Source: Bdellovibrionota bacterium (lineage in GTDB: Bacteria > Bdellovibrionota_C > UBA2361 > SZUA-149 > DAOLCO01). Taken from it: a stretch of DNA of 34,218 bases. The notes below the pieces were generated by a model that searched no databases, had not been told where the DNA came from, and saw nothing but the letters and a program-made list of their open reading frames with translations. Shown here in pieces: positions 3 to 30,919 of the stretch. The number at the start of each line of letters is the position of its first letter. Within the stretch, counting starts at the first letter, position 1. The stretch lies in NCBI GenBank assembly GCA_044351785.1, contig JBILFC010000001.1:1-34218 (forward strand), given 5' to 3'. The translations under genes were made by a program, and so were the position numbers.

Positions 3-1727
3 ATTCCTGGTCTAGTTAACTTCTCTAATGAAGAAATTGAATCTGCCTTAACATCTCTTTTAGGCCTAACTAAGAAAGAAGATCTTCCTTTAATAGATGC
101 TGATACTTTAAAAGGCCCTAATATCGATATAGAGACAGCTGTAGCTCTGTTAGACTCTGGCCTATCAGATTACATCTCATTAAATTTTATACATAAAGCT
201 AACGCAATTCCTAATGATCCATCCTACAGCTCTCTATGGGGGATGAATCAATCTAATGACATCGACATTAATGCACCAGAAGCTTGGGATAAAGTAAATC
301 CTGATGAAGTAAGAAACACAGTAGTGGCAGTTATAGACACCGGAATCAACTACAATCACCCTGATCTTAAAGATAACATGTGGATAAATACAGCAGAGCA
401 AGCCGGCAGCCCTGGAGTGGATGATGATGGAAATGGTGTTATTGATGATATTCACGGATATAATGCGATTAATAATACTGGCAATCCCCTTGACGATCAA
501 TCCCATGGTAGTCACTGTGCTGGAACAATAGGTGGTGTTGGAAACAACGGTCAAGGCGTAGCAGGTGTTGCATGGAATGTTAGACTCATGGCATTAAAAT
601 TCCTTGATTCAGCTGGTAGAGGAAGCGATTCTAATGCAATTAAAGCAATTAACTACGCTGTACAGAATAGAAACAAAAGTGGAACACTCAAAGTATTAAG
701 TAATTCTTGGGGTGGGTCTGGATACAATCCAGCTATGCTCTCAGCAATACAGTCTGCAAACAACGCAGGACTACTATTTGTAGCCGCAGCAGGAAATGAC
801 AACAAGAATACCGACTCAAGCGCTAACTATCCATCGAATTACGATGTTCCTAATGTAATATCGATTGCTGCTCTAAATCAAAATGGAAGTAGGGCTTCAT
901 TCTCCAATTATGGAGCCTCCACTGTAGATATAGGAGCACCTGGTGTAGGAATTTATAGTACGGTACTAGGTACTGGGTATGCCTCTTATAACGGAACATC
1001 CATGGCAACTCCTCATGTAGCTGGCATTGCTGCTCTTGTCTACTCTCAAAGTTCACTTACAACTCCAGGAGAGATGAGAACGCTATTAATGGAAAGCTTT
1101 AAACCTATTCCAGCCTTACAGAATTTAATGATTGTACCTGGAATTATTGATGCGAGCAAGGCTTTAACCGATAATACGAACTCTGCTCCTAATCTTCAAG
1201 ATATACCTAATCAAAAAATAAGAGATTTAACTAAGGTAATCACTGTACCCCTTGTAGCCTCTGATGCTGAGGATAACCAATTAACATTTAAAGCTGAAAT
1301 TCAAGGGCAAGCTCATGAAAAAATAGCCGCTGATATAGACAAACAATATGGCTTCACCGCATACCTTCCACAATTCGATAATTTCTATGGCTTAGCTGAA
1401 AAGAGATTAACCTCCCAATCTAATATGCAGTATTTTATATTTAACGATGGTAGTATTTACGAATTCACATTCCCCACTTATAGGTATAAAGCCAAAGTAG
1501 ATCCAAGGTATTATTCTAATCCTAATGGTTTAGTTAATGCACATCCACTCAGTTACAACAATCTGGCAATAATTACAGTAACAAATGGCAAACCTGGCAA
1601 ACTAGATATTAAACTAGCAGATAATTTTAGCGGTTCATTTTCAATTTTAGTTGAAGTAAGTGATGGAAACAAAACTGATTCCAGTACTTTTTTAGTAACA
1701 ACAACAGAGCCTGAAAGTTGCTCTTAG
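3..1727 (+). CDS. Subtilisin-like serine protease (peptidase S8), 5'-partial, with a C-terminal split cadherin-like repeat
   Basis: The frame of the 243 ATG stays open back to position 3 with no stop (IPGLVNFSNEE...FIHKANAIPNDPSYSSLWGM), so the gene starts upstream of the window. Catalytic triad motifs are present: VAVIDTGI (Asp codon 336-338), SHGSHCAGTIGG (His 514-516), GTSMATPHVAG (Ser 999-1001), plus oxyanion SNSWGG. The C-terminal ~170 aa (nt ~1195-1710) look like a cadherin-like repeat (VASDAEDNQLTF ... FSILVEVSDGN) interrupted by an insert. Confidence 0.9.
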   Translation: MPGLVNFSNEEIESALTSLLGLTKKEDLPLIDADTLKGPNIDIETAVALLDSGLSDYISLNFIHKANAIPNDPSYSSLWGMNQSNDIDINAPEAWDKVNPDEVRNTVVAVIDTGINYNHPDLKDNMWINTAEQAGSPGVDDDGNGVIDDIHGYNAINNTGNPLDDQSHGSHCAGTIGGVGNNGQGVAGVAWNVRLMALKFLDSAGRGSDSNAIKAINYAVQNRNKSGTLKVLSNSWGGSGYNPAMLSAIQSANNAGLLFVAAAGNDNKNTDSSANYPSNYDVPNVISIAALNQNGSRASFSNYGASTVDIGAPGVGIYSTVLGTGYASYNGTSMATPHVAGIAALVYSQSSLTTPGEMRTLLMESFKPIPALQNLMIVPGIIDASKALTDNTNSAPNLQDIPNQKIRDLTKVITVPLVASDAEDNQLTFKAEIQGQAHEKIAADIDKQYGFTAYLPQFDNFYGLAEKRLTSQSNMQYFIFNDGSIYEFTFPTYRYKAKVDPRYYSNPNGLVNAHPLSYNNLAIITVTNGKPGKLDIKLADNFSGSFSILVEVSDGNKTDSSTFLVTTTEPESCS

Positions 1728-1742
1728 TAAATTAGGTTTTAG

Positions 1743-4700
1743 ATGCCAAGTTGTATTAGGCTCATCAGTACTCGTTTAATTCTATTATTGTCTTTGATGA
1801 CAATAAATAGCTTTAATGCTGTTGCTGAGGATCAAGAAGTTACTCTATTTAGTCGCACCTTAAAAAATGGTGAACTAAGAGGTGAATCAGCTTTACTTGA
1901 AAAACCAGAAAAGACAGCCGGGATTCTATCAAATTTAATCACTAACACTAAAGTTATAAAAGATAATGGCCCATCATCTAATCGAGTAGATTTAGTATTT
2001 TTAGGCGATGGATATACAACCGGTGACTCTTCAAAGTTCGATTCTCAAGTGGTAAGCATCTCTGATGGTTTATTCCAACAAATGCCATTAAGTGAATATA
2101 AAAACTATTTCAATCTACATCAAGTTTTCTCACCATCAGTTCAATCTGGTATAGACAATGATGGACAACTTGGAATAGATAAAAATACGGTGTTGAATGG
2201 TAAATTTTATTGCCAAGACGTAAAGGAAAATATCTGCGTAGATGTATCTATCGCCTGGGAACTTGCTGCTCAAGCAAGAGACTTTGATCAAATTTCAGTT
2301 TTAGTAAACTCTAGCTCTGATGGGGGAACTGCCTATCCATTTAGCGATATCTCAGTGGTACCAGGAGGAAACGGTCTAGTAGCTAGTAATCTTGCTCACC
2401 AAGTGGGACATAGCTTTGCTAATCTTGCAGATGAATATGACAATGGTAGTTGGCCTACCTACACTGGCTTTGAACCAGCAGAACCAAATGTTTCTGCTCA
2501 AAATACTGAAGCCATGCTCACACAAAAACTTAAATGGCATCAATGGCTAAGCATAGATTCTGGCGCTAACTTTGGTGGAATAATAAATACCTATGAAGGT
2601 GCAATGGGTCATAAATATTCAATTTATAGGCCAACTGAAAACTCTAAGATGAGGAATCTAAATGCTCCATTCAATAACCCATCTATAGAATCTTTTATTA
2701 AAGAAATCTATAAAAAGGTAAAACCTATTGATAATGCAACGTCAGTGGAAACTCCTCTTACTGGTTCATCAGTGATAAGCGTAACCCCCCTTCAACCAAT
2801 CGGTAGAAACTTAACAATTCAGTGGTATGTAGATAACACTCCTATAGCAGGGGCTAATGCTAAAACTTTTAGACCAAATGACTACCCTATAAGTGATGGT
2901 ATGCATGCAATCTCAGTAGAGGTTTCAGATGATACTCCACTTCTAAAAGACGAAGCCTTTAGAACACAGTACATGAAGGAAAAACGCACTTGGAATGTAC
3001 CTATTGATCAAAATGCACCCATCATCACAAAACATCCTGCAAGTGTTTCTGTATTTATTGGAGCGACAACCAATCTATCGGTAACTGCCATTGGCGAAGA
3101 TCTAAAATACCAATGGTTTAAAAACGGCGTTAAAATTGACGGCGCTACTCAAACATCATATTTGACTCCAGGAGCAATAAGAGAAAAAGCTGACTACTAC
3201 GTAGAAGTCTCCAATGTTCAAGGTACCTTAAGAAGCAATACAGCTACTGTAAGTATTAAAAATAGACTACCCGCATATTCAGGTAGCACTTCATTAACTC
3301 TTTCTAGATTAGAAGAAAAAGAAATTGCTTTTGAAATTAACGATGAAGATGGTGACTCTCTATCTTCAGTTTATACAATTGAAGCCGCGACTAATACTGG
3401 CGTAACAGTTTCATTAGCTTCCAAGAGCCTTAAAATTAAAGCTAGCTCTGCTTACCTAGGACAATTTAGTATAAAATTAAATTTTACTGATTCTTATGAC
3501 ACAATTTCTATACCAATCTCGGTGAACGTTGTTAATAATGCTCCGGTCATTGATGCCATAAATGATTTAACTAGACTATGGACTACTGATAAAGCATCGG
3601 TTGAAATACTTGCTAGTGATAATGACAGCATGGACACAGTCAGTCTCTCTGCTAATCTTGCTACAGGATTCTCAGCACCTGTCAGCCTATCTATGAATGG
3701 TAAAGTGCTAAATATCGATCCGCAAGCAGGTTACTATGGTAAATTTAATGTAACGGTTAGGGCGACGGATGGATTTACAAACACATTTAGAACATTTTCC
3801 GTAAACTGGGCAAATGATAGCCCTGTAATAGATCAGGTGGCACCAATCCGCTCGCATTACAAAGTAGATAAAATTATAGTACCGATAAATGCGACCGATC
3901 CTAATGGTGACACATTACAACTTTCTGCTTCTATTTTGCCTATAAATAACCTAGTTACAGCTAGCTTAAGTGGCAAGACTCTTACCATAGATCCTTCCCC
4001 TACATATAGAGGAGCTAGTACTCTTCGTGTTACAGCTAGTGATAGTGCTCTTAGTAGTGTCATGAATACTAGTCTAGAAATTTATAATAATGCTCCAGTT
4101 ATTGCTCCGATTTCTGCAACAAATGTTAATCAGAATAAAAAATCAGTATCAATACCTGTATCAATATCAGACCCCGATCCAGAAGATAGCGCTACTTTAA
4201 CAAGCAGCGTTAGACTTCTTACTTCTGGAGCAAGTGGTGTTCAGGTTAAATTAGAAAATAACAACCTAATAGTCGAATCTAGTCAAAACTTTTCCGTACC
4301 TCTGTTAGTAGAAGTAAAAGCTACCGATGGAGATTTAACAGCAGTAAGAAATGTTTATCTTAGTGTACTTAATACAGCTCCCTTACTAACTAATATAGAT
4401 GAACAATTTATTCATCCTATTAAAGAAGACATAAGAACCATAGATTTAATAGCAACAGACATAGATAATGATAGTATTACGTATACCGCGGAAGTAGTAA
4501 AACCCAATGCCAAAGCCCCTACCCTATCTGTTTCAGGAAATAAATTATCCATCAATACTATCAACGACTTTCTTGGATCATTCACAATCAGAGTTATCGC
4601 TAGTGATGGCTTAAGTGAAGTAGCAAAAACATTCAAAGTCACAACTTATAATACAGATCCCGAGTTAAATGCCATTTGTGATCGTTCTGCACCGGCAACG

Positions 4701-7700
4701 AAGTTTCCAATAGAAATCCCGCTAATCGCATCAGATCCTGACAAAGAAGACTTAACTTTTGAAGGAAAAATTGAAAGAAATTCTTTACCATTTTTACTAA
4801 AGGCTAAATATAACTTTGACGCTATCAGATTTAGACCTAGTAATGGTCTAGGATTAGGTGAAAAGTATGTCAGTGGTTACGAAACAGACCCAGATATTAA
4901 ATTCTGGTACTATATTCTTCCTAATGGGGACCTATATAGGTTAAATAAAACACATAAGGAAAGCCAGTTCCTCCTAAAATTACCTGCAGGATACTATGAA
5001 AATCCCGATATCCTAATAAATGGTGATATCTCTGGAACTATTCTCAATGCTTTCTCAATATCTTTTGAGGGAAGTAAGCTTAAAGTTGCGCTCTCAAGAG
5101 CAGTACAAGGATCTGTTCAAATAAGGGTTAGAGCTAAAGATTACTTCTCATTTAATGAAAAATCTTTCATTCTAACTGTAACAGAAGGAAGATTAAAATT
5201 AGATGATGTTCCCGACATGAACATCCATTGGAAGGAAGAACCACGATCTGGATCATTAATAGCTAAAGATCCAGTAACTGGCTTAACACCAGATGATATG
5301 AGCTACGATGTGGCAGAATTTGACGGTTCTCTTGCAAAAAGTCTAGATGACCAATACAATTTTCATGTATCAAGAAATGATCAATATGATGCACAGATTC
5401 CACCTGATAACTTCACAAATAGAGGTGAGAAATATATTAGAGCTTACAAGATTAGTTATTTAAACAATGTACCTTCATACGCAGGGATTGATGTATTTGC
5501 GATACTTCCAAATGGTGATTTATATTTATCTCCACCAAAGGCTCAAAATACACAATACTACAGTTTAGAAAATGCTACATTAATAGCAGAACTTGATAAA
5601 GTCTATTATAGAGATACATCTTTACTAATCAATGCAGCAAGTGGAGCGGGAACAAATCTTATTATAAACGGAGATAATACTAGCTTCACGGTGGAACAAA
5701 CTCCTGGATTCTTAGGGAAAGTCATCTTAGAAGCAAGAGCATGGAAAGGTATCGCCTCAGACAGTAAAACATTTATTGTTAACATATACGACAATGAACC
5801 TACGCTGAATGTTCCACTTAATTGTGATGAATTTGGCTGCAAGTTAATAAGAAACTGGAAAACAAACGAAATTAGGCTTCCAATCACCCTCAGTGACGTT
5901 GACCCACTTGATAGTGTAACTTCTAAGGCCTTTGAAACGGATCCTTCCTTAAACCCAGCTAATTCAGCTTCTGAATATTCCCTAAAGTGGAATCATAAGA
6001 ATGGCCAATTCGATAGAGATGGCTGGAGAGAAATACATTTTGCAGGAACTTATCAAAACTCAGAAACTGATATCGCTTTAACTACTGATGGGAAATTATA
6101 TAAATGGAATGGTAATCCACAGAATAGCATTCTATTAACTCAAGTTCCTAGTTCATTCCATGAGCTAGGATACACCTTAGATTCTTCTGTCAATACTTCT
6201 AAGCCTAGCTTGTTAAATCATCCCGAAGTAAGAGTTGAAGGCTCTGAATTAGTAATTACCCCTAAAGCAAATACAGTTATAAATTCCGGTATAATAGGAT
6301 GGGCAAGCGACGGAATGAAACGCGGATTCCTCAAATTCCCCGTATTCATAATTAATCAGCAACCTCAAATTGGAGCCATTGCAGATAAAACTGTTCACTG
6401 GAGAGACAACCTCATTACCGAGAATATCTTGGTTAGTGATCCAGATGGAGACACCGTTTCAAACTTGAATCTGACAATCAATCCTATTAGCATTGATCCA
6501 GCTATCGATTATAATCTAACTAACCTAGTTCTTACTTTAAAATCTAAATTTGGATATTTAGGAACCTATTCATCCACAATCTTTGTGACTGATCAGGGTA
6601 ATCTAAGCAGTGCTCGATCATTTAATACTACAGTCTTCAATACTGCTCCAGTTCTAGAATCTATCGGCAATAAAGATATTGATTGGAATATGAATACGTT
6701 AGAAATTCCATTCACGATGAGCGATGCAGATGCTAATGACTCCGATAAGTTAATATCTATGGTATTTAACGGATCTGCTTCTGACTTTACCGATTTCCTA
6801 GTAAATAAGCACAAGTTTACTAAAACTGGAGCAGGTGCTACCAATTCTCTTGGACTATCTGAAGTACACTTCAAAGGTACAGTAGAGAATCAAAGTAGAG
6901 AATTTATAGTATTGCCCTCAGAGGCTATCTACCTTGTGAGTGGTACTAATTTAGAGATTAAAGGATTCCTAGCACCTGGTACATACAGTAACCCTAACAG
7001 ACTATTAAGCATTGTTAATCCGAACTTTGCTCCAAAACATTCTGTAAGCACCGACGGAACAAAAATCATTTTAAGTAAATCATCAGGGCTAACTGAACCA
7101 ATCATAGTTACAGCTTGGGCAACTGACACGATTCAAGCTACTTCTGAAACATTTACAGTAAATATCATAGACAACGCTCCAGTATTACCAGAGCTAGCGA
7201 CAAGCTATGAAAGACATTGGAGACCAGGGCTACTAGAACTTCCTAATTTCCCTTCAATTGACGAAGAAGGTGAAACCATTAATTATCAAGTAACTTCAAG
7301 TCCAGCAGGATTACAACACTCTATTAGCTCTAGTATTCTTTCTGTAAAACCAACTAATGCTAATCAAATTGGAAATTACACTGTAAACATAGTAGCAACT
7401 TCAGGATCTAAATCTTCAAGCAAGTCCTTTAGCTATAACTTAACAAATGGTGCTCCATCAATTGCACCTCTAGGAGCACAGACCGTCGTTGGTTACAAAG
7501 AATCTTACTCTCAACCCTTTACCGCAACAGATCCAAATTCAGATCCTCTAACTTATACTACCAGCCTAGTAGGACCTTCACCATCTAACTTCTTAGTTGC
7601 TGTAGCTGGATCTACGATTAAAGTTTCTCCTAAAACTCCGCTAGCAGGTACTTACACTATAAACCTAAAAGCTTCAGATGGGCCTTCTTCAGCAGATGCT

Positions 7701-10700
7701 TCAACACAAATAATTTTCCAAAATAGAGCGCCAACATTTAATGTTCCGTCAGCGATGGATATCCCATGGAAAACAAAAGTGGGTAGTCAAACTCTAGTTT
7801 TCAGTGATCCTGATGATGACACTCTAACCTTGACCCCTACCATCAGTGATCCTACTGTAGCCACTGCTGTGATAAGCGGAAATAAAATAAATATCGATCT
7901 AAAGAAATATGCTCCAAGTTTTATAGTTAAAATAAGATTAAGCGATGGAGCTAACTCTATAGACAGAGAATTCCCTGTTTCAGTTAGCAATCTTAAACCA
8001 ACTCTAACAGGCTTACCACCAACTAAAGACATACACTGGAATACAAATTCATTTACGCAATCATTCACAGTAGCAGATGCAAACAATGACACTTTAACAG
8101 TTACATCTAAAATACTAAATAACACAGTTCCTGCTAGCGTAACTATTACAAATAGCCTCGCTACTATAGATGTTACAGAAAAGAAAATGGGCGAATTAAA
8201 CTTAAATATAAAAGTTGCTGACGATGTCTCAAGCACTGAAGGCAACATGAAAGTTACCTTTACTAATACAAAACCTAAAATCTCAGAAATTGCTAACCAA
8301 ATTATTTCAACTGGCATAGAAAAGACTCTTGAACTAGAAGCCTCAGACGCCAATAGTGATGAATTAACACTTTCCGCTATAAAAATGTCTTTGGAAGAAG
8401 TTGCGTTTGACCTAGATAAAATGTTTAACTTTGAACAAGGCGAAACCAACTTTGGATTTAATAAATTAGGTAATAACGAAAAATACCTAAGAGGTAGCGA
8501 TCCTGTAAGAAAAACTCCTCTTAATTTTGTTATCTATCCTAATGGCAGACTATATATCTGGACTGGAATATTAACGAATAGCACTTTTTTAGGAAGTATT
8601 CCTACCGAATTGCATGCCAACCCTACTCTCCTTATCAACGCTATTGCTCCAAATGCTTCAAATATTTCTTATACCGCAAGCATAACTGGTTCTACATTGA
8701 AATTAAAAGCAATTAACGACTTTGAAGGAACCTTCTGGATTAGAGCGGCAGCCACAGATACTCAAGAATTAGCACCAATGTATTTTAGAGTTAATTCCTA
8801 TAAGGAAGTTACTTCAGGTGGTGGCACTGATCCAAAAGAGTGCGAAACTAAAGAGACAGAACACGACGGAGAATGCAGTCAATCTGGGAAGTCAATGTTC
8901 ACTGCCGAAGGCAGAATAGGAGATACTGTGACTGGGGCAGGAAATAGAACTTTTGAATTAGATATTGGCAAAAGTACTAGTGGGCCTTTTGCTAGTGGAC
9001 AAACAAGTAATCATATTTGGGTAAGTGGAAAGAAAGAAAGCTTCTCAATAACTTTTGATCCAATTAATAAAGTATGTAATTTTGTATTAGGAGGGAAAAC
9101 CGTAGTATATAAAATTACAGAAGATGTATTCTCTCTTAGTGACATTTTAATAAGAACTAGACGAGGGAATACTCAGTCCAGTATGAAAATTGATTCTCTA
9201 AAAATCAATGGTAAAACAATTTCTAATTCCGTGTACGCTGATGGGAATTCTAACCAAGTGCGAACTCTACAAATTCGTTCAGTGAAGGAACTAAAGGATA
9301 AATTCACCTTAGAGGGTGCTGCTACTATGATATTCTCCTCTGATGTGAAGAATTCAGAACTTGCATTCCAAATATCCTTTACGAAATCAGACAATGCGCC
9401 TGAGACTTGTGAAGATAGCGATGAAGATGATCATGATGACGACGATTCAGATCACGATGATGAAGACGATAATGATGACGATGATTCTAACTCCAGAAAA
9501 GTAAAAATATGTCATTATCCTCCAGGAAATACCTCTAACCCACAGACAATTACTGTTTCTAAGTCTTCATTATCAGCTCACTTAGCACACGGCGATGTGA
9601 TTGGAGAATGTCCAGGCGATCCTCAAGATCCAGGCACGGGTGAAATTTCATGCGAAGCTAAGCAGTTGTTTGCTAGCCCTAACTACACTCTTTGGAATAG
9701 CTTCTTAAATATGATCAATATTCTAGAATTGACTAACTCTACAGCTAACCCAATTCCAGTGAAGATCTCCTTCTTCTCAATATTAGGTGAGCTTGCACAT
9801 GAAAGAACAATAGTTGTCCCAGCGACTAACCAGTTCGACGTTATTATCAATGATTTCCCTGGATTCGTGAAAGATTCCTATGGTGTTGTAAAACTCGAGT
9901 TTACTGGAAATCTTGATGGTAGAATGAGTTTCTATAGACCTACAACTGGTCTTACTTCTTATGACTATGCATATTCAATTCCTTTAGCTGATGCGAATTT
10001 TGGAACAACTGCAATAAGTTTCAATACCTTCCAACCAAGTCAAAAGCCTTCTGAGCTTAATAACTTAGTAGCTAACTGGTTAAGTATAGTAAATCTTGAT
10101 TCAGCGACACAAAAATATAGTGTCTTCACTTATGATATGTCTGGAAAACTTATTCTTAGAAGAGAGCTTGAAATTCCTTCATTCGGAAGAGCCGATGTCG
10201 ATGGTGGCCATGGTCTTGCAGGCCCTAATGTAGTCGGTTACCATAAGGTTATCCCCTACAATGTGACAGCGGAATACATCGCTCAAATAACTAGATTCGG
10301 TGGGAATGCTGCTGCTGGATTTGCCCCTTCAGCATATAAATTTGCCTTCCCATTATCCGCTAAGCTTGGTGCAAGCGATCCTATTTATGTTCCAATTTCG
10401 AATAAATTCGGGGAATCAAATTGGATAGAAGTTGTAAATATTCTTGATCAAACAGTACAAGCTGCAATCAACTACTACTCAATTGATGGTAGGTTACTTG
10501 AATCTGCAGATGCTTACATCCCAGGGAATGCTCAAATACATTTTAATGCTAGTGCTCAATTAGCAAGTGGAGAGACTGGTTATGCCGTAGTCGTTCCAAG
10601 CACTCCATATTCAATTGTTGCTCAAAGTATGGGTTACCTTAGAGAGCAAGCAACTGGCAGCGTAACTTCAGTTTATGGATCTCAAGCTAGAAGAGCTGTA

Positions 10701-11027
10701 CCTTGTGTTCAATCTGGCGCTTACAACTTATATCTAAATATGCAAAACTGGTTACTAGTTGCAAATACTACTAATGACACTATAAAAGCCGTGGTAAAAT
10801 TCACTGGACCTAATCTAGCTAGCCAGAAGTCCCTAACCCTCGCTCCTAGGGCATCTGTTTACCTACCAATTCATGGCAATACGGAAATTGGTGCTAAAGC
10901 AGATACTTATGGACTCATCGCGGTATATCCCGAGGATTCTTCTCTAAGATTATTCTCCGAAGTTATGAGACTTAAGTATAAGGCTGATGGTTCACCTGAC
11001 TTCTCAATGCCAGTCCCAGTTAGATAA
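1743..11027 (+). CDS. Giant (3,094 aa) secreted mosaic surface protein with an M64-like domain carrying HQVGH, Ig-like domain, 15 cadherin-like repeats and a composite C-terminal region
   Basis: Single uninterrupted ORF starting 15 nt after the S8 stop. N-terminal signal peptide (LILLLSLMTINSFNAVA/ED). M64 signature RVDLVFLGDGYT ... LVNSSSDGG ... AHQVGHSFANLADEYD. Ig-like segment KYQWFKNGVKIDGATQTSY...YYVEVSNVQG (~3015-3260). Repeats carry [ST]D[PA][DN]xDxL motifs (3261-8803). C-terminal modules occupy 8804-11024. Confidence 0.9.
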   Translation: MPSCIRLISTRLILLLSLMTINSFNAVAEDQEVTLFSRTLKNGELRGESALLEKPEKTAGILSNLITNTKVIKDNGPSSNRVDLVFLGDGYTTGDSSKFDSQVVSISDGLFQQMPLSEYKNYFNLHQVFSPSVQSGIDNDGQLGIDKNTVLNGKFYCQDVKENICVDVSIAWELAAQARDFDQISVLVNSSSDGGTAYPFSDISVVPGGNGLVASNLAHQVGHSFANLADEYDNGSWPTYTGFEPAEPNVSAQNTEAMLTQKLKWHQWLSIDSGANFGGIINTYEGAMGHKYSIYRPTENSKMRNLNAPFNNPSIESFIKEIYKKVKPIDNATSVETPLTGSSVISVTPLQPIGRNLTIQWYVDNTPIAGANAKTFRPNDYPISDGMHAISVEVSDDTPLLKDEAFRTQYMKEKRTWNVPIDQNAPIITKHPASVSVFIGATTNLSVTAIGEDLKYQWFKNGVKIDGATQTSYLTPGAIREKADYYVEVSNVQGTLRSNTATVSIKNRLPAYSGSTSLTLSRLEEKEIAFEINDEDGDSLSSVYTIEAATNTGVTVSLASKSLKIKASSAYLGQFSIKLNFTDSYDTISIPISVNVVNNAPVIDAINDLTRLWTTDKASVEILASDNDSMDTVSLSANLATGFSAPVSLSMNGKVLNIDPQAGYYGKFNVTVRATDGFTNTFRTFSVNWANDSPVIDQVAPIRSHYKVDKIIVPINATDPNGDTLQLSASILPINNLVTASLSGKTLTIDPSPTYRGASTLRVTASDSALSSVMNTSLEIYNNAPVIAPISATNVNQNKKSVSIPVSISDPDPEDSATLTSSVRLLTSGASGVQVKLENNNLIVESSQNFSVPLLVEVKATDGDLTAVRNVYLSVLNTAPLLTNIDEQFIHPIKEDIRTIDLIATDIDNDSITYTAEVVKPNAKAPTLSVSGNKLSINTINDFLGSFTIRVIASDGLSEVAKTFKVTTYNTDPELNAICDRSAPATKFPIEIPLIASDPDKEDLTFEGKIERNSLPFLLKAKYNFDAIRFRPSNGLGLGEKYVSGYETDPDIKFWYYILPNGDLYRLNKTHKESQFLLKLPAGYYENPDILINGDISGTILNAFSISFEGSKLKVALSRAVQGSVQIRVRAKDYFSFNEKSFILTVTEGRLKLDDVPDMNIHWKEEPRSGSLIAKDPVTGLTPDDMSYDVAEFDGSLAKSLDDQYNFHVSRNDQYDAQIPPDNFTNRGEKYIRAYKISYLNNVPSYAGIDVFAILPNGDLYLSPPKAQNTQYYSLENATLIAELDKVYYRDTSLLINAASGAGTNLIINGDNTSFTVEQTPGFLGKVILEARAWKGIASDSKTFIVNIYDNEPTLNVPLNCDEFGCKLIRNWKTNEIRLPITLSDVDPLDSVTSKAFETDPSLNPANSASEYSLKWNHKNGQFDRDGWREIHFAGTYQNSETDIALTTDGKLYKWNGNPQNSILLTQVPSSFHELGYTLDSSVNTSKPSLLNHPEVRVEGSELVITPKANTVINSGIIGWASDGMKRGFLKFPVFIINQQPQIGAIADKTVHWRDNLITENILVSDPDGDTVSNLNLTINPISIDPAIDYNLTNLVLTLKSKFGYLGTYSSTIFVTDQGNLSSARSFNTTVFNTAPVLESIGNKDIDWNMNTLEIPFTMSDADANDSDKLISMVFNGSASDFTDFLVNKHKFTKTGAGATNSLGLSEVHFKGTVENQSREFIVLPSEAIYLVSGTNLEIKGFLAPGTYSNPNRLLSIVNPNFAPKHSVSTDGTKIILSKSSGLTEPIIVTAWATDTIQATSETFTVNIIDNAPVLPELATSYERHWRPGLLELPNFPSIDEEGETINYQVTSSPAGLQHSISSSILSVKPTNANQIGNYTVNIVATSGSKSSSKSFSYNLTNGAPSIAPLGAQTVVGYKESYSQPFTATDPNSDPLTYTTSLVGPSPSNFLVAVAGSTIKVSPKTPLAGTYTINLKASDGPSSADASTQIIFQNRAPTFNVPSAMDIPWKTKVGSQTLVFSDPDDDTLTLTPTISDPTVATAVISGNKINIDLKKYAPSFIVKIRLSDGANSIDREFPVSVSNLKPTLTGLPPTKDIHWNTNSFTQSFTVADANNDTLTVTSKILNNTVPASVTITNSLATIDVTEKKMGELNLNIKVADDVSSTEGNMKVTFTNTKPKISEIANQIISTGIEKTLELEASDANSDELTLSAIKMSLEEVAFDLDKMFNFEQGETNFGFNKLGNNEKYLRGSDPVRKTPLNFVIYPNGRLYIWTGILTNSTFLGSIPTELHANPTLLINAIAPNASNISYTASITGSTLKLKAINDFEGTFWIRAAATDTQELAPMYFRVNSYKEVTSGGGTDPKECETKETEHDGECSQSGKSMFTAEGRIGDTVTGAGNRTFELDIGKSTSGPFASGQTSNHIWVSGKKESFSITFDPINKVCNFVLGGKTVVYKITEDVFSLSDILIRTRRGNTQSSMKIDSLKINGKTISNSVYADGNSNQVRTLQIRSVKELKDKFTLEGAATMIFSSDVKNSELAFQISFTKSDNAPETCEDSDEDDHDDDDSDHDDEDDNDDDDSNSRKVKICHYPPGNTSNPQTITVSKSSLSAHLAHGDVIGECPGDPQDPGTGEISCEAKQLFASPNYTLWNSFLNMINILELTNSTANPIPVKISFFSILGELAHERTIVVPATNQFDVIINDFPGFVKDSYGVVKLEFTGNLDGRMSFYRPTTGLTSYDYAYSIPLADANFGTTAISFNTFQPSQKPSELNNLVANWLSIVNLDSATQKYSVFTYDMSGKLILRRELEIPSFGRADVDGGHGLAGPNVVGYHKVIPYNVTAEYIAQITRFGGNAAAGFAPSAYKFAFPLSAKLGASDPIYVPISNKFGESNWIEVVNILDQTVQAAINYYSIDGRLLESADAYIPGNAQIHFNASAQLASGETGYAVVVPSTPYSIVAQSMGYLREQATGSVTSVYGSQARRAVPCVQSGAYNLYLNMQNWLLVANTTNDTIKAVVKFTGPNLASQKSLTLAPRASVYLPIHGNTEIGAKADTYGLIAVYPEDSSLRLFSEVMRLKYKADGSPDFSMPVPVR
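3261..8803 (+). repeat. Array of 15 diverged ~90-aa cadherin-like/Ig-like repeats inside the giant CDS; five carry a roughly 75-100 aa insert
   Basis: Recurrent unit boundaries N[NTD]APV[IL]. Acidic motifs SDNDSMD, TDPNGDTL, SDPDPEDS, TDIDNDSI, SDPDKEDL, SDPDGDTV, SDADANDS, TDPNSDPL, SDPDDDTL, ADANNDTL, SDANSDEL. Each unit closes with ...G.F.i.v.a.Dg. The repeats are conserved at protein level only, with no long identical DNA blocks seen. Confidence 0.8.
9411..9485 (+). repeat. GAT/GAC/GAA-rich low-complexity tract encoding EDSDEDDHDDDDSDHDDEDDNDDDD
   Basis: Read codon by codon from 9411: 25 consecutive codons, of which 21 encode D or E, interspersed with H, S and N. Confidence 0.9.
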
Positions 11028-11107: not shown

Positions 11108-11728
11108 GTGATATATGTTGTATTGCTCTCTCTATGCTTTGTTGCCGCGCTCGTTTACTGCCTATTAACAAAAGGGAATTGTGACGATATTGCGGGGGAG
11201 TTTGTAATCTCGGTACAAAGTAATTCGAGTTCAACAACGCCCGACCTGGAGGAGCAGACGTGGAAATGGTTTGAAAAATTTATGATACTAGGACGTGCTC
11301 AGTACGCACTAGGTCAAGTAGTGGATGTAAACTTCTTCTTTCACCTGCTTGAACATAAGAAAAGAATAGTCGTAACAAAAGTTTTTAATTATCCATCCGC
11401 AGGAGACAAGGATAGCGACTTACTTAGTTTAATCAGGATTGAAGAACGTTTCGGTGATTATCCTCAACATGAGATTACTCACCTCAGTATCGCTAGCACA
11501 GCTGGAGAAATTGAAATAGAAACCACTCTACCTATCTTGATTTCGTTTGTGCAAAGAGTTCTATCCACCTATCAGGGCGAAATGGTAGTTCGAACGCAAC
11601 TACTAAATCACTTGCCGGTAGAAGTACAGCAATTTTTCATTCAAACCTTCATTCACTGCGGCTTCCAATCGAGCTTAGTGGGGTTATCATGCATTTGCGA
11701 TGGATCGAAGTCTACTCACGCGCAATAG
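11108..11728 (+). CDS. Hypothetical membrane-anchored protein (206 aa), GTG start
   Basis: A strong Shine-Dalgarno AAAGGAGG lies 6 nt upstream of the GTG at 11108. N-terminal hydrophobic helix IYVVLLSLCFVAALVYCLL. Local GC is ~43% against ~36% in the neighbouring repeat region. A hairpin terminator follows. No family recognised. Confidence 0.55.
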   Translation: MIYVVLLSLCFVAALVYCLLTKGNCDDIAGEFVISVQSNSSSTTPDLEEQTWKWFEKFMILGRAQYALGQVVDVNFFFHLLEHKKRIVVTKVFNYPSAGDKDSDLLSLIRIEERFGDYPQHEITHLSIASTAGEIEIETTLPILISFVQRVLSTYQGEMVVRTQLLNHLPVEVQQFFIQTFIHCGFQSSLVGLSCICDGSKSTHAQ

Positions 11729-11747
11729 CATTTAGGGATTACACATT

Positions 11748-11777
11748 GCCGGAGGCTTGCTTCCGGCTTTATTATTT
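11748..11777. terminator. Stem-loop between convergent genes, T-rich on the + strand
   Basis: GCCGGAGG-CTTG-CTTCCGGC (8 bp including one G-U pair, tetraloop) followed by TTTATTATTT. It overlaps the stop codon of the minus-strand gene at 11772. Confidence 0.5.
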
Positions 11778-24024: not shown

Positions 24025-24603
24025 ATGTACAATTTACTGCTCAACAAGTTCTCAGAACAACATTTTCTTAAACAATTAACACCATTATCAAAAACTACTA
24101 AGGTAATAACCTCAGACACATCTGGCAGGGGAGTAATTGCAACGATAGATATCCCAGCAGGCACTCTCCTAGGAATATATCCAGGTGCACATATAAGCTA
24201 CAAAGAGTTTTTAGAAAAAGAACAATTTGTAAGTCGCTCTGTAAAATCTGCCTATATGTTCTCTAAAGATATCATTATTGATCCAACAGATATGTTTGGT
24301 TACCTAACCGACACTCCAGATCACCGCATAGCTCTAATTAACGAGGCCAGCCCCTCACAACAAACAAATATCGCAGCAATTAATACAAGAAGAAATGTTT
24401 GGTATATTAGCATTCAAGACATTAAAGCTGGGGAAGAATTATTTACTAACTACGGCAACCAATATAAAAGAAATTATTCTTCCTCTGATGCAGGTAATCA
24501 AATTTTTAGCGATAATCAAATTAAAATCTTACAAGGTTTGGCAGCTAAATATCTTTGGACGAAAAGAGGTATCGGTGAATTGTTAATAATATTATTAAAT
24601 TAA
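24025..24603 (+). CDS. SET-domain protein (putative lysine methyltransferase, 192 aa)
   Basis: GRGVIATIDIPAGTLLGIYPG (GxG plus beta-hairpin), YMFSKDIIIDPT, ALINEASPSQQTNI (in place of the RFxNHSCxPN motif) and IKAGEELFTNYG (the post-SET ELxxxY motif). Confidence 0.7.
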   Translation: MYNLLLNKFSEQHFLKQLTPLSKTTKVITSDTSGRGVIATIDIPAGTLLGIYPGAHISYKEFLEKEQFVSRSVKSAYMFSKDIIIDPTDMFGYLTDTPDHRIALINEASPSQQTNIAAINTRRNVWYISIQDIKAGEELFTNYGNQYKRNYSSSDAGNQIFSDNQIKILQGLAAKYLWTKRGIGELLIILLN

Positions 24604-25809: not shown

Positions 25810-26763
25810 CTAGAATCCGCTATACCCAGAACACTCTCCTTGATAACTCACATTAATACCGGCCTCTGTAGCTTTACACTCATTAAAATAGGTCTGTGCA
25901 TTTGCGCCACATACCGGTGCATATACTCGAGAGCATGTCGGAGCCCCACATTCACCCTCGTATAATACTGTAGTTCCAGCTGCTCTAGCATAGCAAGTGT
26001 TACCATAAGTTTCACCATCTGCACCACAGACAGGCACAAATTCCTGCGAACAGATAGGAGCAGGGGCAGACTCCTGTCTGCAAATCCCTTGATGAGCGAC
26101 TCCCACCCCCGCTTCGGCAGCATGACAATAACTATCATATGTTTTGCCATCGACACCGCAAACCTTTCCAATAACTTGTATACAGTAAGGCCCATCAGTT
26201 GACTCCTGCTTGCACTCACCTTCATAAGAGACAGTAGCGCCAGCATTTTTAGCTTCACAAGAATTACTATAGGTCTTACCATCTGTCCCACAAACAGGCT
26301 TAATCCACTGTGGGCATATATCAGATCCTCCCGTGCTAGGAGAATCTGGCCTTTTACTATTATCAATATTATTATCCACACTCGTACGTACATCTTCAGG
26401 CGTTTTTCCTACTACCACATCTATCTGAGCTGGTTTTGAATTATCAACTAAATTTGTTACAGATACAGTTGTGTTTACAGCAGGACCATTAAATATAATT
26501 ACTGCCTCTTGACCTACCTCACTAGCAATCTCAAATTTGCCCTCAGAATCTGTAATAGTAGTATCGCCAGTTTCTTCGACCGTAACGGAAACATTAGGTA
26601 TCGGCTTTTGATTAGAATCTACGACAGTCCCTTCAAATTGTCTTAAATTTACAGACGTATTATCTCCACCCGTCCCAGAAGTACCACCTCCACATGCCAT
26701 GATTGACACAATTAAAAACCCTAAAAATACTTTGGAACAAACCTTACCAACAAAACAATTCAT
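25810..26763 (-). CDS. Lipoprotein with a CarboxypepD_reg-like beta-sandwich and four tandem atypical Kazal-like protease-inhibitor domains
   Basis: Lipobox SIMAC (Cys24). FEGTVVDSNQKPIPNVSVTVEETGDTTITDSEGKFEI matches the carboxypeptidase-regulatory-like pattern. There are four copies of C-x7-C-G-x-D/N-G/A-x-T-Y-x3-C-x-A-x2-A-G-x9-C. Confidence 0.85.
   Translation of the reverse strand: MNCFVGKVCSKVFLGFLIVSIMACGGGTSGTGGDNTSVNLRQFEGTVVDSNQKPIPNVSVTVEETGDTTITDSEGKFEIASEVGQEAVIIFNGPAVNTTVSVTNLVDNSKPAQIDVVVGKTPEDVRTSVDNNIDNSKRPDSPSTGGSDICPQWIKPVCGTDGKTYSNSCEAKNAGATVSYEGECKQESTDGPYCIQVIGKVCGVDGKTYDSYCHAAEAGVGVAHQGICRQESAPAPICSQEFVPVCGADGETYGNTCYARAAGTTVLYEGECGAPTCSRVYAPVCGANAQTYFNECKATEAGINVSYQGECSGYSGF
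25831..26316 (-). repeat. Four Kazal-like units (aa 150-184, 194-228, 238-272, 276-311)
   Basis: CPQWIKPVCGTDGKTYSNSCEAKNAGATVSYEGEC; CIQVIGKVCGVDGKTYDSYCHAAEAGVGVAHQGIC; CSQEFVPVCGADGETYGNTCYARAAGTTVLYEGEC; CSRVYAPVCGANAQTYFNECKATEAGINVSYQGEC. Period is 44/44/38 aa. Confidence 0.85.
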
Positions 26764-27782: not shown

Positions 27783-28259
27783 ATGGCTGGCGCACTTCCA
27801 AAATCACCCTCAGAATTTACTAAAATCCCAGGCGCGAAAGTAGCCATTATTGCTAGCATGTGGCACAAGGAAATTATTGAAACCATGGTCCAGAGTGCAA
27901 AGAAGCACCTCATGGCAATTGGCCTTCAAGAAAAGCATATTAAAATCACTTGGGCTCCTGGTTCTCATGAAATTCCTTACTATGCTAAAATGCTTTTAGA
28001 TCATCAAAATAATTTAGATGGAATCATGGCCTTTGGCGTTGTACTCAGAGGCGGCACAACTCACAATGACTCCGTACTTCAAGCCGCTGTTAATGGTTTT
28101 ATCAATCTAAGCCTAGAATACGGAAAACCAATTATCAATGAAGTGATTGGAGTAAATAATATTGAAGACGCTGAAAAAAGAGCAGAAGACAAAGGCACCG
28201 AGGCGACCTTTGCCTTCTCAGAAGCAATTGCGTTTAAGAGATCCTTACTTCTTCTTTAA
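27783..28259 (+). CDS. ribH: 6,7-dimethyl-8-ribityllumazine synthase (divergent)
   Basis: VAIIASMWHKEIIETM (canonical ASRFN... with Trp in the stacking position), APGSHEIP (canonical VPGAFEIP), DGIMAFGVVLRGGTTHNDSV, EDAEKRAEDKGTEA. Confidence 0.78.
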   Translation: MAGALPKSPSEFTKIPGAKVAIIASMWHKEIIETMVQSAKKHLMAIGLQEKHIKITWAPGSHEIPYYAKMLLDHQNNLDGIMAFGVVLRGGTTHNDSVLQAAVNGFINLSLEYGKPIINEVIGVNNIEDAEKRAEDKGTEATFAFSEAIAFKRSLLLL

Positions 28260-30323
28260 CAATTCCGCCGTTTCTAGAAGCTTTATATAGTCAGCTCTAT
28301 ACCCAAGAGCGTCTTCACCCTTAGCACCCCTAGCTAACTCTATCGCAGTAGCAAAGGTAGCTGAACCTTTATATTCAGAATCTCTAAGAAGCATACCGAA
28401 CTCAGCAACAGAAGCTGCGAATCTAAAGTTATTACTTGTTTCACTACCAGCAATTGGATTAGAGTTAATCACCTGACTTATCAGTTTACTTTGTTCTTCA
28501 GCAGGAAGTTTATATCTAAGCTTTATAGTAGCCAACTCTTCATTGTGATTCATCTCCTGAACTTTTACAGGACTAGGCGAAGGAGCTGCCCGCTGATACT
28601 TAAGATCATCAACACTTGCCACCTGATTAAAATCAACTCCTACTGGAACAATTTCATAAAGCGCAGTTACGCTATGACCTGAACCTAATTCCCCAGCGTC
28701 TTTTTTATCATCATTAAAATCTTCCTTCGCTAACATTCTATTTTCATAACCGATCAACCTATATGCCTGCACATATGCTGGGTTAAATTCTATCTGAATT
28801 TTAACATCCTTAGCGATAGTAAATAGAGTCCCTTTAAGATCTTGAACTAAGACCTTCTTAGCTTCAAGAATATTATCTATAAAGTAGTAACTGCCATTCC
28901 CTTTATTAGCTAACTGCTCCATCTTTTTATCCTGATAGTCACCAGTACCGAAGCCAAGTACACTTAAAAACACCCCTGACTTTCTTTTCTCTTCTATCAA
29001 CCTCACTAATTCTTGATCACTAGATACTCCGACATTAAAATCACCGTCAGTAGCCAATATAACTCTATTATTAGCGCCCTGAATGAAATTCTTCTTCGCA
29101 ATTTCATAAGCTAAGCCTATCCCAGCTGCTCCAGCAGTGGATCCTCCTGGAGAAAAGCTATCAATGGCTGAAAGGATTTCTGCCTTCTGAGTTCCACTTT
29201 TTGACTCGAACACCACTCCAGCAGTACCAGCATAAGTCACAACTGAAAGCCTATCTTCTGGTTTTAACTTCTCGACTAATAACTTTAGTCCCTGCTTTAA
29301 CAAAGGTAACTTATCAGGACTATCCATAGACCCTGATACGTCTACTAGGAATACAAGATTACTAGCTGGAAGCTCACTAATATCCTCTTCGTATCCCTTA
29401 AGTCCAACATGAAGTAATTGATGTTTAGGCTCCCAAGGCGCTGAACCTAATTCAGTATAAACAGCAAATGGAACTTCTTTAGTTGATGGAGCTTTATAAT
29501 CATACTTAAAGTAATTTAGAAGCTCCTCTGTTCTAACAACATCCGCAGGCGGTAACTCACTGTTACTTAAGTACCGTCTTACATTAGAATACGAGCCAGT
29601 ATCCACATCTATTGAAAATGTAGAAAGAGGTACGTTTAAGGCATCTAAATAGCCATTTTCAACAGCTTTGCCGTAATCAGTATCTAGCGCAGCAAAATTC
29701 GCCTCTCGACTACCATCTAATACCATCTGACCCTTAAGACCTCTTCCTATATTTGCCCCCTGAGCAGGAACTGATTTGGGTAATACTGACTTTTTCTGAC
29801 CTTCAATGTCATTCTTAAAAGCCACTATAAGATCCGCGTATTGCTCACCGCCCTCGGATTGTAACGCATACGGAACAGGATTTGGAGTACCCTCAGTAGG
29901 TGCATTCACACCCGTTAGAAGATTTACTGATTCACCTTCATTAGTTAAAACCTGCACCCCAGGTTGAGCTTTGTAAATAATCATTAAGACTGCAATACTT
30001 GCAAAACTTGGCGCAAGCACATACACAAACCTTCTTCTATCTACAACCTTCGCTATTTTTTTCCTTATACTACTCATACTACTACTCCATTTATTAACCG
30101 GCGATAATTCTCCAATCGCCTTCATTACTACTAAATCAAAACCTTCTGGTGCCTTAACTCCATTTACGCTCATGGAACCTAAAGCAGCATTTACCTTAAC
30201 AAATTCATTATAATCACTAGCTAACTTAGGATCTTCTCTGAAACTTTTCTCTAAAGATTCCCTCTCAGAAGCCGACAATGTGCCTTCTAAATATGCTAAA
30301 AATTGTTCGTGTAAGTCTTTCAT
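28245..30323 (-). CDS. Anti-sigma-factor N-terminal domain / TM / von Willebrand factor A fusion (YfbK-like, 692 aa)
   Basis: N-terminus HEQFLAYLEGTLSASERESLE (anti-sigma-like, no Cys), TM helix FVYVLAPSFASIAVLMIIY, PLSTFSIDVDTGSYSNVRRYL...RTEELLNYF (VWA N-terminal module), MIDAS DVSGSM (29325-29342), and a long C-terminal extension. Confidence 0.85.
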   Translation of the reverse strand: MKDLHEQFLAYLEGTLSASERESLEKSFREDPKLASDYNEFVKVNAALGSMSVNGVKAPEGFDLVVMKAIGELSPVNKWSSSMSSIRKKIAKVVDRRRFVYVLAPSFASIAVLMIIYKAQPGVQVLTNEGESVNLLTGVNAPTEGTPNPVPYALQSEGGEQYADLIVAFKNDIEGQKKSVLPKSVPAQGANIGRGLKGQMVLDGSREANFAALDTDYGKAVENGYLDALNVPLSTFSIDVDTGSYSNVRRYLSNSELPPADVVRTEELLNYFKYDYKAPSTKEVPFAVYTELGSAPWEPKHQLLHVGLKGYEEDISELPASNLVFLVDVSGSMDSPDKLPLLKQGLKLLVEKLKPEDRLSVVTYAGTAGVVFESKSGTQKAEILSAIDSFSPGGSTAGAAGIGLAYEIAKKNFIQGANNRVILATDGDFNVGVSSDQELVRLIEEKRKSGVFLSVLGFGTGDYQDKKMEQLANKGNGSYYFIDNILEAKKVLVQDLKGTLFTIAKDVKIQIEFNPAYVQAYRLIGYENRMLAKEDFNDDKKDAGELGSGHSVTALYEIVPVGVDFNQVASVDDLKYQRAAPSPSPVKVQEMNHNEELATIKLRYKLPAEEQSKLISQVINSNPIAGSETSNNFRFAASVAEFGMLLRDSEYKGSATFATAIELARGAKGEDALGYRADYIKLLETAELLKKK

Positions 30324-30919
30324 TAGCGAACCTCACTTAATTTAGATCTTAGAACTAAAAGGGCGGCATTCATTCTTGAAGAAACTGTTCCAACAGGAAT
30401 ATCAAGTTCTTTACTAATTTCTTGATACGACATCCCGTTAAAAGCCCGCCGAACTAAAACATCTTTATAAATTTCTTTTAGCTGTGAAATTTCTTGCCGC
30501 ATAAAACCTAAAAGTTCCTCAGAAAACTTGTTCTCTTCGCTAGTTTCTGAACTAATTATCTGCTCATGCTCACTTGTCTTAAAACTATCTGATCGCTGTT
30601 TTTTCTTATACGCAGAAGAAGTGAAATAAGACTTAATATTATTTAGAGCTATTCTAACTAACCAAGTCTTAAACAAACTATCTCCCTTAAAAGTTCCCAG
30701 ATATTTATAAGCCCTGATAAAAGTATCCTGTGCAATATCTTTCGCCATAGCTTGATCACCTACCTGAGCTAACACCAATGCATAGATCTGATCTTGGAAA
30801 TTTAAAACAATAGAAGAGAATGCGGACTTATCGCCAGCGATAACTCGCCGAACAACATCCAGAATCTGGCCCTCATCAAGAGGCAACTTAACTACATTCT
30901 CACTCATCTTCCTATCCAA
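30323..30919 (-). CDS. ECF-type RNA polymerase sigma-70 family factor
   Basis: Region 2 DIAQDTFIRAYKYL...FKTWLVRIALNNIKSY. Region 4 MSYQEISKELDIPVGTVSSRMNAALLVLRSKL. TAATG overlap with the anti-sigma gene. The track start is a TTG at 30919; the ATG at 30907 (MSENVV...) is an equally plausible start. Confidence 0.9.
   Translation of the reverse strand: MDRKMSENVVKLPLDEGQILDVVRRVIAGDKSAFSSIVLNFQDQIYALVLAQVGDQAMAKDIAQDTFIRAYKYLGTFKGDSLFKTWLVRIALNNIKSYFTSSAYKKKQRSDSFKTSEHEQIISSETSEENKFSEELLGFMRQEISQLKEIYKDVLVRRAFNGMSYQEISKELDIPVGTVSSRMNAALLVLRSKLSEVR

Follow-up and report, generated by a model that had tools for sequence, protein, structure and literature searches.

In Clostridioides, the active S8 protease CspB is genetically paired with CspA and CspC, binding or receptor proteins whose protease fold is catalytically dead, and the giant surface repeat protein LapA, a substrate of a type I secretion system (T1SS), has a dedicated protease in LapG, a periplasmic cysteine protease under the control of LapD and cyclic di-GMP (c-di-GMP). 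In Bordetella, the S8-family protease SphB1 is functionally tied to FhaB, a secreted repeat protein of more than 3,000 amino acids (aa), and in Treponema denticola the dentilisin operon prcB-prcA-prtP encodes a subtilase together with non-catalytic partners, with which it forms a surface complex (PMC6070651; PMC8167434). Here we describe a gene pair that has points of likeness to all of these systems and differs from them in architecture. It lies at positions 3–11027 of a stretch of 34,218 nucleotides (nt) from a Bdellovibrionota bacterium, which is an entire contig (JBILFC010000001.1 of assembly GCA_044351785.1) and is called the window below, and it consists of a gene for a short S8 subtilase and, directly downstream, a gene for a protein of 3,094 aa, called the giant, which carries an M64-type metallopeptidase head without the catalytic Glu. 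The two proteins are co-encoded and almost certainly co-translated, and they very probably work as a pair.

What the pair has in common with CspB/CspC is an S8 protease, here predicted to be active, beside a catalytically dead protease-fold partner, and the window S8 gave weak NCBIfam matches to the CspBA and CspC models; the pseudoproteases there, however, have the S8 fold and are intracellular or spore-associated, whereas here the dead fold is that of M64 and would be carried on a giant secreted fibre. With LapG/LapA it would share the principle that one protease is devoted to a giant repeat protein at the cell surface, but LapG, LapD, c-di-GMP control and a T1SS have no part in the present pair. 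SphB1 differs in being an autotransporter and FhaB in being a substrate of two-partner secretion; their genes do not form an overlapping pair, the two proteins share no module, and FhaB has repeats of other types and no pseudo-peptidase head. In dentilisin, PrcA and PrcB are small lipoproteins or substrates, and the system includes neither a 3,000-aa fibre nor an M64 domain. The window S8 matched the PrtP model only partially, and its score of 102 bits against an equivalog cut-off of 300 indicates that it is not a PrtP orthologue; the score for mycosin, the subtilase of the type VII secretion system, was also below its cut-off (131 against 278.75). A literature search for a pair of an S8 protease and such a giant found no paper describing it, in agreement with the original prediction, made from the letters of the window, that no described system has this combination. 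The pair is real, conserved and undescribed, and represents known families in a new arrangement.

According to the listing of open reading frames (ORFs) and their translations, the protease gene is an open frame of 574 codons on the forward strand (3–1727), whose 5′ end is cut by the start of the contig, and the giant gene occupies 1743–11027 on the same strand. The protease stop codon TAG (1725–1727) and the giant ATG at 1743 are separated by a spacer of 15 nt (1728–1742), in which a consensus scan for terminators found none; the first strong terminator-type hairpin, with an 8-bp stem including six G-C pairs and a T-run, is located at 11748–11767. An identical full-length protease (P0192) of 628 aa, which is 54 aa longer and has a signal peptide, is encoded on an 11-kb contig of GCA_041443065.1, where the start of a giant also comes 15 nt after it; the window protease lacks this signal peptide and the beginning of the propeptide. 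The giant has a Sec-type signal peptide at aa 1–28, and signal peptides on both proteins predict that both are exported. The two-gene unit had been thought to extend upstream of the window, which, as a whole contig, allows no lengthening; the protease is indeed 5′-truncated, but only the 54 missing codons lie upstream, followed by a small divergent ORF.

The conservation of this arrangement was examined from both of its genes. A genome scan with an alignment of the M64-like head detected eight loci of Bdellovibrionota/Oligoflexia with 48–76% identity. At the four with enough upstream DNA (L002, L003, L005 and L009), an S8 gene of 620–650 aa with one C-terminal copy of a split module, described below, is found directly upstream of the giant, and at a partial locus (L004) an S8 fragment with the split module occupies this place. 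A protein search with the whole protease gave 18 orthologue clusters of 600–654 aa with 49–100% identity and 100% query coverage, past which the coverage falls sharply to 84% or less. In the neighbourhoods of seven of these clusters, the S8 gene was in every case followed by the whole or the beginning of an M64 giant; these giants have 3,057–3,119 aa, and one of them is split into 1,863 and 505 aa. The order of S8 and then giant was thus found in 11 of 11 independent loci, with S8 identities of 49–78% and junctions ranging from an 8-nt overlap to a 26-nt gap; these are the window/GCA_041443065.1, L002, L003, L004, L005, L009 (identical to L164/L165 and counted once), L162, L163, L166, L167 and L169, all from metagenome-assembled genomes (MAGs) of Bdellovibrionota/Oligoflexia. 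Orthologous giants have 2,885–3,119 aa.

Across the pair loci no flanking gene is shared except the small divergent upstream ORF, which is weakly conserved. Adjacency kept in 11 of 11 loci at 49–78% divergence, with no other conserved flank and with overlapping stop and start codons, argues for selection for co-translation and stoichiometry, and because the pair has been kept in every related genome examined, it is very probably a functional pair. The original prediction had described a tight, probably co-transcribed two-gene unit and had named co-occurrence in related genomes as a check; the terminator-free gap and the orthologous junctions agree with the former, and for the latter an S8 with the module was present beside the giant at each of the 11 loci, with no counter-example. 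A metagenome scan with an S8 alignment yielded 80 S8 relatives at 62% identity or less, none with the insert of the split module or with an M64 neighbour; its two closest relatives are cut within the S8 domain, and the scan added neither pairs nor counter-examples. Below about 62% identity, the C-terminal domains of S8 relatives are of other kinds, and their genes have no M64 gene next to them.

In the protease, the Peptidase_S8 domain (PF00082) covers aa 104–366 (nt 312–1100) with an E-value of 2.9e-58 and 197.9 bits against a gathering score of 21.8. The catalytic motifs DTG, HGSH and GTSMA correspond to an intact Asp-His-Ser triad and are invariant in the five orthologues aligned, from which we predict that the subtilase is catalytically competent.

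The head of the giant is different in this respect. Its M64-like domain (nt 1956–2732; Peptidase_M64, PF09471, at aa 72–270 with an E-value of 7.7e-36 and 124.2 bits against a gathering score of 26) aligns with the solved M64-like peptidases 4DF9 and 3P1V. The catalytic motif of M64 is HEXXHXXXGXXD, in which Glu is the general base/acid, and a 2025 family survey reported that the motif is retained in all bacterial clusters (PMC12402451). The window motif, HQVGHSFANLAD, departs from it by replacement of Glu with Gln, HQVGHSF standing opposite HEFGHSF (HQVGH at aa 219–223, nt 2397–2411), while H219, H223 and D230 are still present as metal ligands. The HQxxH form occurs in all eight related giant loci of the genome scan and two metagenomic orthologues have HV and HL, whereas 46 remoter M64 relatives that the scan also detected have HExxH; the two His and the Asp/Glu metal ligands are invariant in the clade. 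The M64 immunoglobulin A (IgA) peptidases, such as the Thomasclavelia ramosa IgA protease and BF3526 (PDB 4DF9), share the PF09471 fold and the HxxxH..D metal site with the giant, but the catalytic Glu is missing throughout the clade of the giant. With its general-base Glu lost, the head would be a binding domain and no protease, and since the Glu is missing though the PF09471 fold is kept, only fold membership remains and we regard the head as a pseudopeptidase, which probably still binds metal and peptide without hydrolysis. The earlier view of a dead M64 head with the S8 protease as the active partner has therefore gained support at the level of prediction, from a loss conserved across the clade on one side and an intact triad on the other.

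Behind its catalytic domain, the protease carries a single split immunoglobulin (Ig)/cadherin-like module of the Big_9 type (nt 1182–1712). Its last 189 aa were aligned end to end by blastp with giant aa 970–1148 (E 9e-11) and 2174–2367 (E 4e-10). A profile of the intact repeat of about 90 aa found ten intact copies in the giant and, in addition, five sites in the giant and one in the protease that match by the first third and last half only; the gap between the halves is 75–100 residues overall and about 100 aa in the protease, where the sandwich halves are at aa 410–434 and 533–555 and the insert is at about aa 447–512. A profile of the insert, whose consensus is LD..xGL....N..G..EKW..G....WYFI.P.G.LY.W.G, detected the insert five times in the giant and once, with E 1.1e-26, in the protease, and the other ORFs of the window in all six frames gave E-values of at least 0.2 throughout. 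The protease tail is accordingly the same split module as the five of the giant, as had been noticed originally. The further statement that this repeat type occurs nowhere else is true within the window, but the insert is present in 1,069 representative protein clusters.

An AlphaFold2 (AF2) model of the protease module, with a predicted local distance difference test (pLDDT) value of 68, shows a beta-sandwich broken by a helix and a small beta-meander; a Foldseek search with this model returned generic Ig domains only, and a PDB sequence search with the insert profile returned no relative. Matches of the protease to Big_9 (PF17963) had 17.3–22.6 bits, below the cut-off of 23.6, and those to Cadherin_5 were weak (E 0.012), with acidic motifs of the SDAEDN type being present. 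Some other carriers of the insert partly match positions 64–113 of DUF6593, for which a literature search found no paper, or a choline/cell-wall-binding repeat (Choline_bind_1); the copies in the window gave no Pfam match to either at E ≤ 1.

A word-indexed search for homologues of the isolated protease tail gave no result, but an exhaustive search with the insert profile retrieved 1,069 representative clusters at a threshold of E ≤ 1e-3, of which 607 remained at E ≤ 1e-10; 3–9 copies per cluster are usual. Among the best 150 clusters, 29 have an N-terminal S8 domain close to that of the window and 6 have an M64-like head, and the rest include matrixin, clostripain and trypsin heads or Planctomycete signals. 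The split module, which is found behind S8, M10, C11 and trypsin heads, is a widespread building block of stalks. Particularly informative is P0010 (MCB0323093.1, "S8 family serine peptidase [Bdellovibrionales bacterium]", from a MAG), a protein of 2,163 aa whose aa 62–631 are collinear with aa 1–565 of the window S8 at 51% identity. Beyond its first module it has six more split modules with a period of about 175 aa (seven in total) and then a C-terminal domain of about 450 aa of the giant type. The S8 module is 37% identical to the first module of P0010, against 20–30% to the modules of its own giant.

Long S8-headed paralogues of this kind therefore resemble the protease in the S8 domain and first split module, and the giant in a split-module stalk and a four-sandwich C-terminal domain; they differ in having head, stalk and base in one polypeptide, whereas in the window these parts are divided between a short protein, which has the active head and a terminal Cys, and its neighbour, which has the stalk, the base and a dead M64 head. 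From this comparison, the short subtilase is by descent a stalk-less and base-less relative of the long paralogues, and since its S8 domain and module are collinear with them and the module is nearer to their first one, the shared repeat is explained by common ancestry within a family of proteins built as protease head, stalk and base. The original prediction had taken the shared module for a docking or targeting device; this part could not be upheld, because the module is widespread, collinear with the long paralogues and nearer to P0010 than to its own giant. Docking of the S8 protease on the giant is possible, and the sharing of the repeat itself gives it no support.

Between its head and its base the giant is composed mainly of such repeats, and an Ig_7 domain was also detected in it by Pfam. 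Five intact Big_9/tandem-95-type repeats (aa ~515–965, nt 3285–4637; hidden Markov model (HMM) matches at aa 527–956, Big_9 E 6.1e-16) are followed by split module 1 (aa 970–1148, nt 4650–5186), which matches the protease module better than the others do and starts with an invariant P-I-C-D-R-S, split module 2 (aa 1153–1356, nt 5199–5810), which has an extra internal insertion, split module 3 (aa 1366–1542, nt 5838–6368) and split module 4 (aa 1634–1812, nt 6642–7178). Four intact Big_9-type repeats (aa ~1815–2170, nt 7185–8252), detected by the repeat HMM, and split module 5 (aa 2175–2362, nt 8265–8828) complete the series. Modules 3, 4 and 5 were found with the repeat and insert profiles, modules 4 and 5 also by blastp, and the five insert domains were found at maximum sensitivity. 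For the giant, Big_9 (PF17963) scored 59.5 bits against the cut-off of 23.6, and the NCBIfam model tand_rpt_95 (NF012211) scored 38.1 against 90.

The base starts with a choice-of-anchor W domain (aa 2374–2546, nt 8862–9380; NCBIfam NF041928, 117.7 bits against a cut-off of 45) and ends with a C-terminal domain of about 450 aa (nt 9660–11024), whose homologues end proteins with S8, M11/M12-like (reprolysin-like), trypsin and plastocyanin/CHRD heads. The AF2 model of this domain (pLDDT 85.7 overall and above 90 in the folded part) consists of four tandem beta-sandwiches. An outer-membrane beta-barrel was considered for it and rejected, because the four sandwiches of the model are soluble. In a PDB fold search with the model, matches such as TM1070 were limited to single beta-sandwich domains, and the C-terminal domain has weak DUF5719 matches and is otherwise unannotated. 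Between a poly-Asp/Glu linker and the C-terminal domain, we observed a short conserved motif with two invariant Cys and without a family match, K-I-C-H-x-P-P-G-N ... H-L-A-H-G-D-x-x-G-E-C (9507–9611, giant aa 2589–2623).

Cysteines provide a hint of contact between the two proteins. The penultimate residue of the protease is a Cys (codon 1719–1721, in ..EPESCS before the stop), which is invariant in all 18 orthologous short subtilases and absent at the equivalent position of the long paralogue P0010. Giants have nine invariant Cys, an odd number, one of which is Cys979 (4677–4679) in the P-I-C-D-R-S motif at the start of split module 1, and this is the giant module nearest to the S8 module in six of nine pairs. 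The two Cys are thus candidates for an intermolecular disulfide. On the basis of these features, we defined the S8 + HQ-M64 giant operon by two adjacent genes, of which the first encodes a short S8 protease that has a single split module and a terminal Cys, and the second, immediately downstream, a giant of about 3,000 aa with an HQxxH M64 head and a four-sandwich C-terminus; all of this was found in the window and in 10 further loci.

The reading that we favour, and hold to be probable though by no means secure, is that of a conserved Bdellovibrionota-like two-gene operon, the two Sec-exported products of which act together, with the giant supplying stalk, base and pseudo-head in trans. The first gene would provide a subtilase composed of a signal peptide, a propeptide, the S8 domain, one split Ig-like module of 175 aa and a terminal Cys, and the second a fibre of about 3,000 aa with a distal zinc-binding M64-type head lacking the general-base Glu, a stalk of mixed intact and split Big_9-type repeats, and a base made of the choice-of-anchor W domain and the four-sandwich domain. 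In such a system the giant would offer a pseudo-head that binds substrate, and the subtilase, as the sole catalytic partner, would ride on the giant or process it; the split module that it has retained, together with a disulfide formed by its invariant terminal Cys, may hold it on the giant. A likely role would be proteolysis outside the cell or at surfaces, for example on prey envelopes. A more specific form, which we consider rather unlikely, is a capture-and-cut fibre with its head in trans, in which the S8 protease would be disulfide-linked to the Cys of split module 1 part-way along the stalk and the pseudo-M64 tip would capture the target, such a device being used by Bdellovibrio-like bacteria on prey or substrate surfaces.

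Several points weigh against joint action of this kind. Common ancestry suffices to explain the shared module, and the S8 module, at its low identity of 20–30% to the modules of its own giant, gives no sign of co-evolution. An additional Cys in module 2 of seven of nine giants might be an internal partner of Cys979. Sister giants of the HQ type at L006–L008 have no S8 gene upstream, and a giant can therefore exist without an S8 partner. Pfam/NCBIfam, the homologues and the fold search revealed no recognised anchor and no secretion signal in the C-terminal domain, and as neither an anchor nor a secretion machinery was identified, the original description of the giant as a surface adhesin was not substantiated. 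The organism is known only as MAG contigs, and that it lives as a predator is an assumption based on the taxon labels of related bacteria.

Other explanations of the pair have to be considered. The subtilase might be only a maturase that trims, releases or activates the giant without stable docking, its module being an inherited appendage. Operon linkage and translational coupling are consistent with such a role, the maturation of the giant adhesin FhaB by the subtilisin-type SphB1 is a precedent (PMC6070651), and descent from the long paralogues accounts for the S8 module; the retention of exactly one split module and of an invariant terminal Cys by 18 of 18 orthologues, however, is left unexplained, and a conserved cleavage site was not identified, so that we regard this role as conceivable but unlikely. 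It is improbable that the two are independent neighbours, i.e., secreted proteins derived from paralogues and co-expressed for the same process, such as feeding or predation, while neither touching nor modifying each other. The reuse of the module and of the C-terminal domain on many unrelated heads would suit this view, as would the HQ giants without an S8 gene, but the adjacency in all 11 loci at high divergence, with overlapping stop and start codons and no other conserved flank, is difficult to reconcile with it.

Two more possibilities concern the components themselves. If the M64-like head were a peptidase using another general base, the pair would be a two-protease system, and the invariance of the metal ligands (H, H and D/E) and of much of the domain could be cited for this; the position of the Glu, which serves M64 as general base/acid (PMC12402451), is occupied by Q, V or L depending on the orthologue, and this implies that no chemistry is conserved there and makes the possibility very improbable. 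As for a chance or low-complexity resemblance between the protease tail and the giant repeats, pairwise identity is only about 26%, but the end-to-end alignments, the split HMM matches in register, the clear separation of the insert profile score of the protease from those of the other ORFs, and the presence of the module in all orthologues refute this explanation. Joint action of the subtilase and the giant remains our preferred reading.

Several additional ORFs near the pair were also observed. At every locus for which upstream DNA is available, the divergent upstream ORF (128–181 aa) is found on the strand opposite to the S8 gene, 280–410 nt before it (L162:9274–9819, L163:9289–9708, L164:9143–9592, L166:9329–9730, L167:9300–9719 and L169:3540–3926, all on the minus strand; 136 aa on the GCA_041443065.1 contig). 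Its products have an N-terminal hydrophobic segment and a C-terminal helical motif and are weakly homologous across loci (23–39% identity), and it may be a third, fast-evolving component or a regulator. Downstream of the giant, an ORF of 206 aa (11108–11728, +), which has AAGGAGG as a strong ribosome-binding site and whose product has a hydrophobic segment at the N-terminus, precedes the hairpin terminator at 11748–11767. It may be co-transcribed with the pair in the window organism; as a third member of the operon it was rejected, being conserved in no other locus. An antisense ORF of 220 aa within the giant gene (7787–8449, −) has a counterpart in L002 and is most likely no gene but a reflection of the conserved sequence that encodes the repeats. 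Upstream of two of the sister giants, there is instead a Ser/Thr protein kinase with LysM (L007:7718–9460, L008:1–1035). S8 genes directly upstream of short M64 genes with HExxH were found at L043:2692–9710, L063:2049–7624 and L015:7561–11053, the hosts being Planctomycetales, an unclassified MAG and Spirillospora, and two of these S8 proteins have dockerin domains; the S8–M64 adjacency may be older and broader than the giant system of Bdellovibrionota.

Elsewhere in the window, the gene at 25810–26763 (−) encodes a protein with a CarboxypepD_reg domain and, unusually for bacteria, three to four serine-protease-inhibitor domains of the Kazal type; this protein could be an inhibitor for self-protection against secreted serine proteases. 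A SET-domain protein, resembling lysine methyltransferases, is encoded at 24025–24603 (+) in a bacterial chromosome context. The YfbK-like VWA-domain protein at 28245–30919 (−), adjoining an extracytoplasmic function (ECF)-type sigma factor, is ordinary and has no relation to the S8–giant pair.

The pair represents a conserved two-protein system in a lineage known for hydrolase-based predation, and its giant would provide the first clade-wide bacterial M64 pseudopeptidase. The analysis has also revealed two widespread and unannotated building blocks, the split Ig-like module of about 175 aa, present in more than 1,000 clusters, and the four-sandwich C-terminal domain of about 450 aa. If the arrangement with the head in trans is true, the pair would be a clear natural case in which a catalytic head and its stalk and anchor have been separated into two genes, and the terminal Cys and a Q220E change would offer testable handles on the system.

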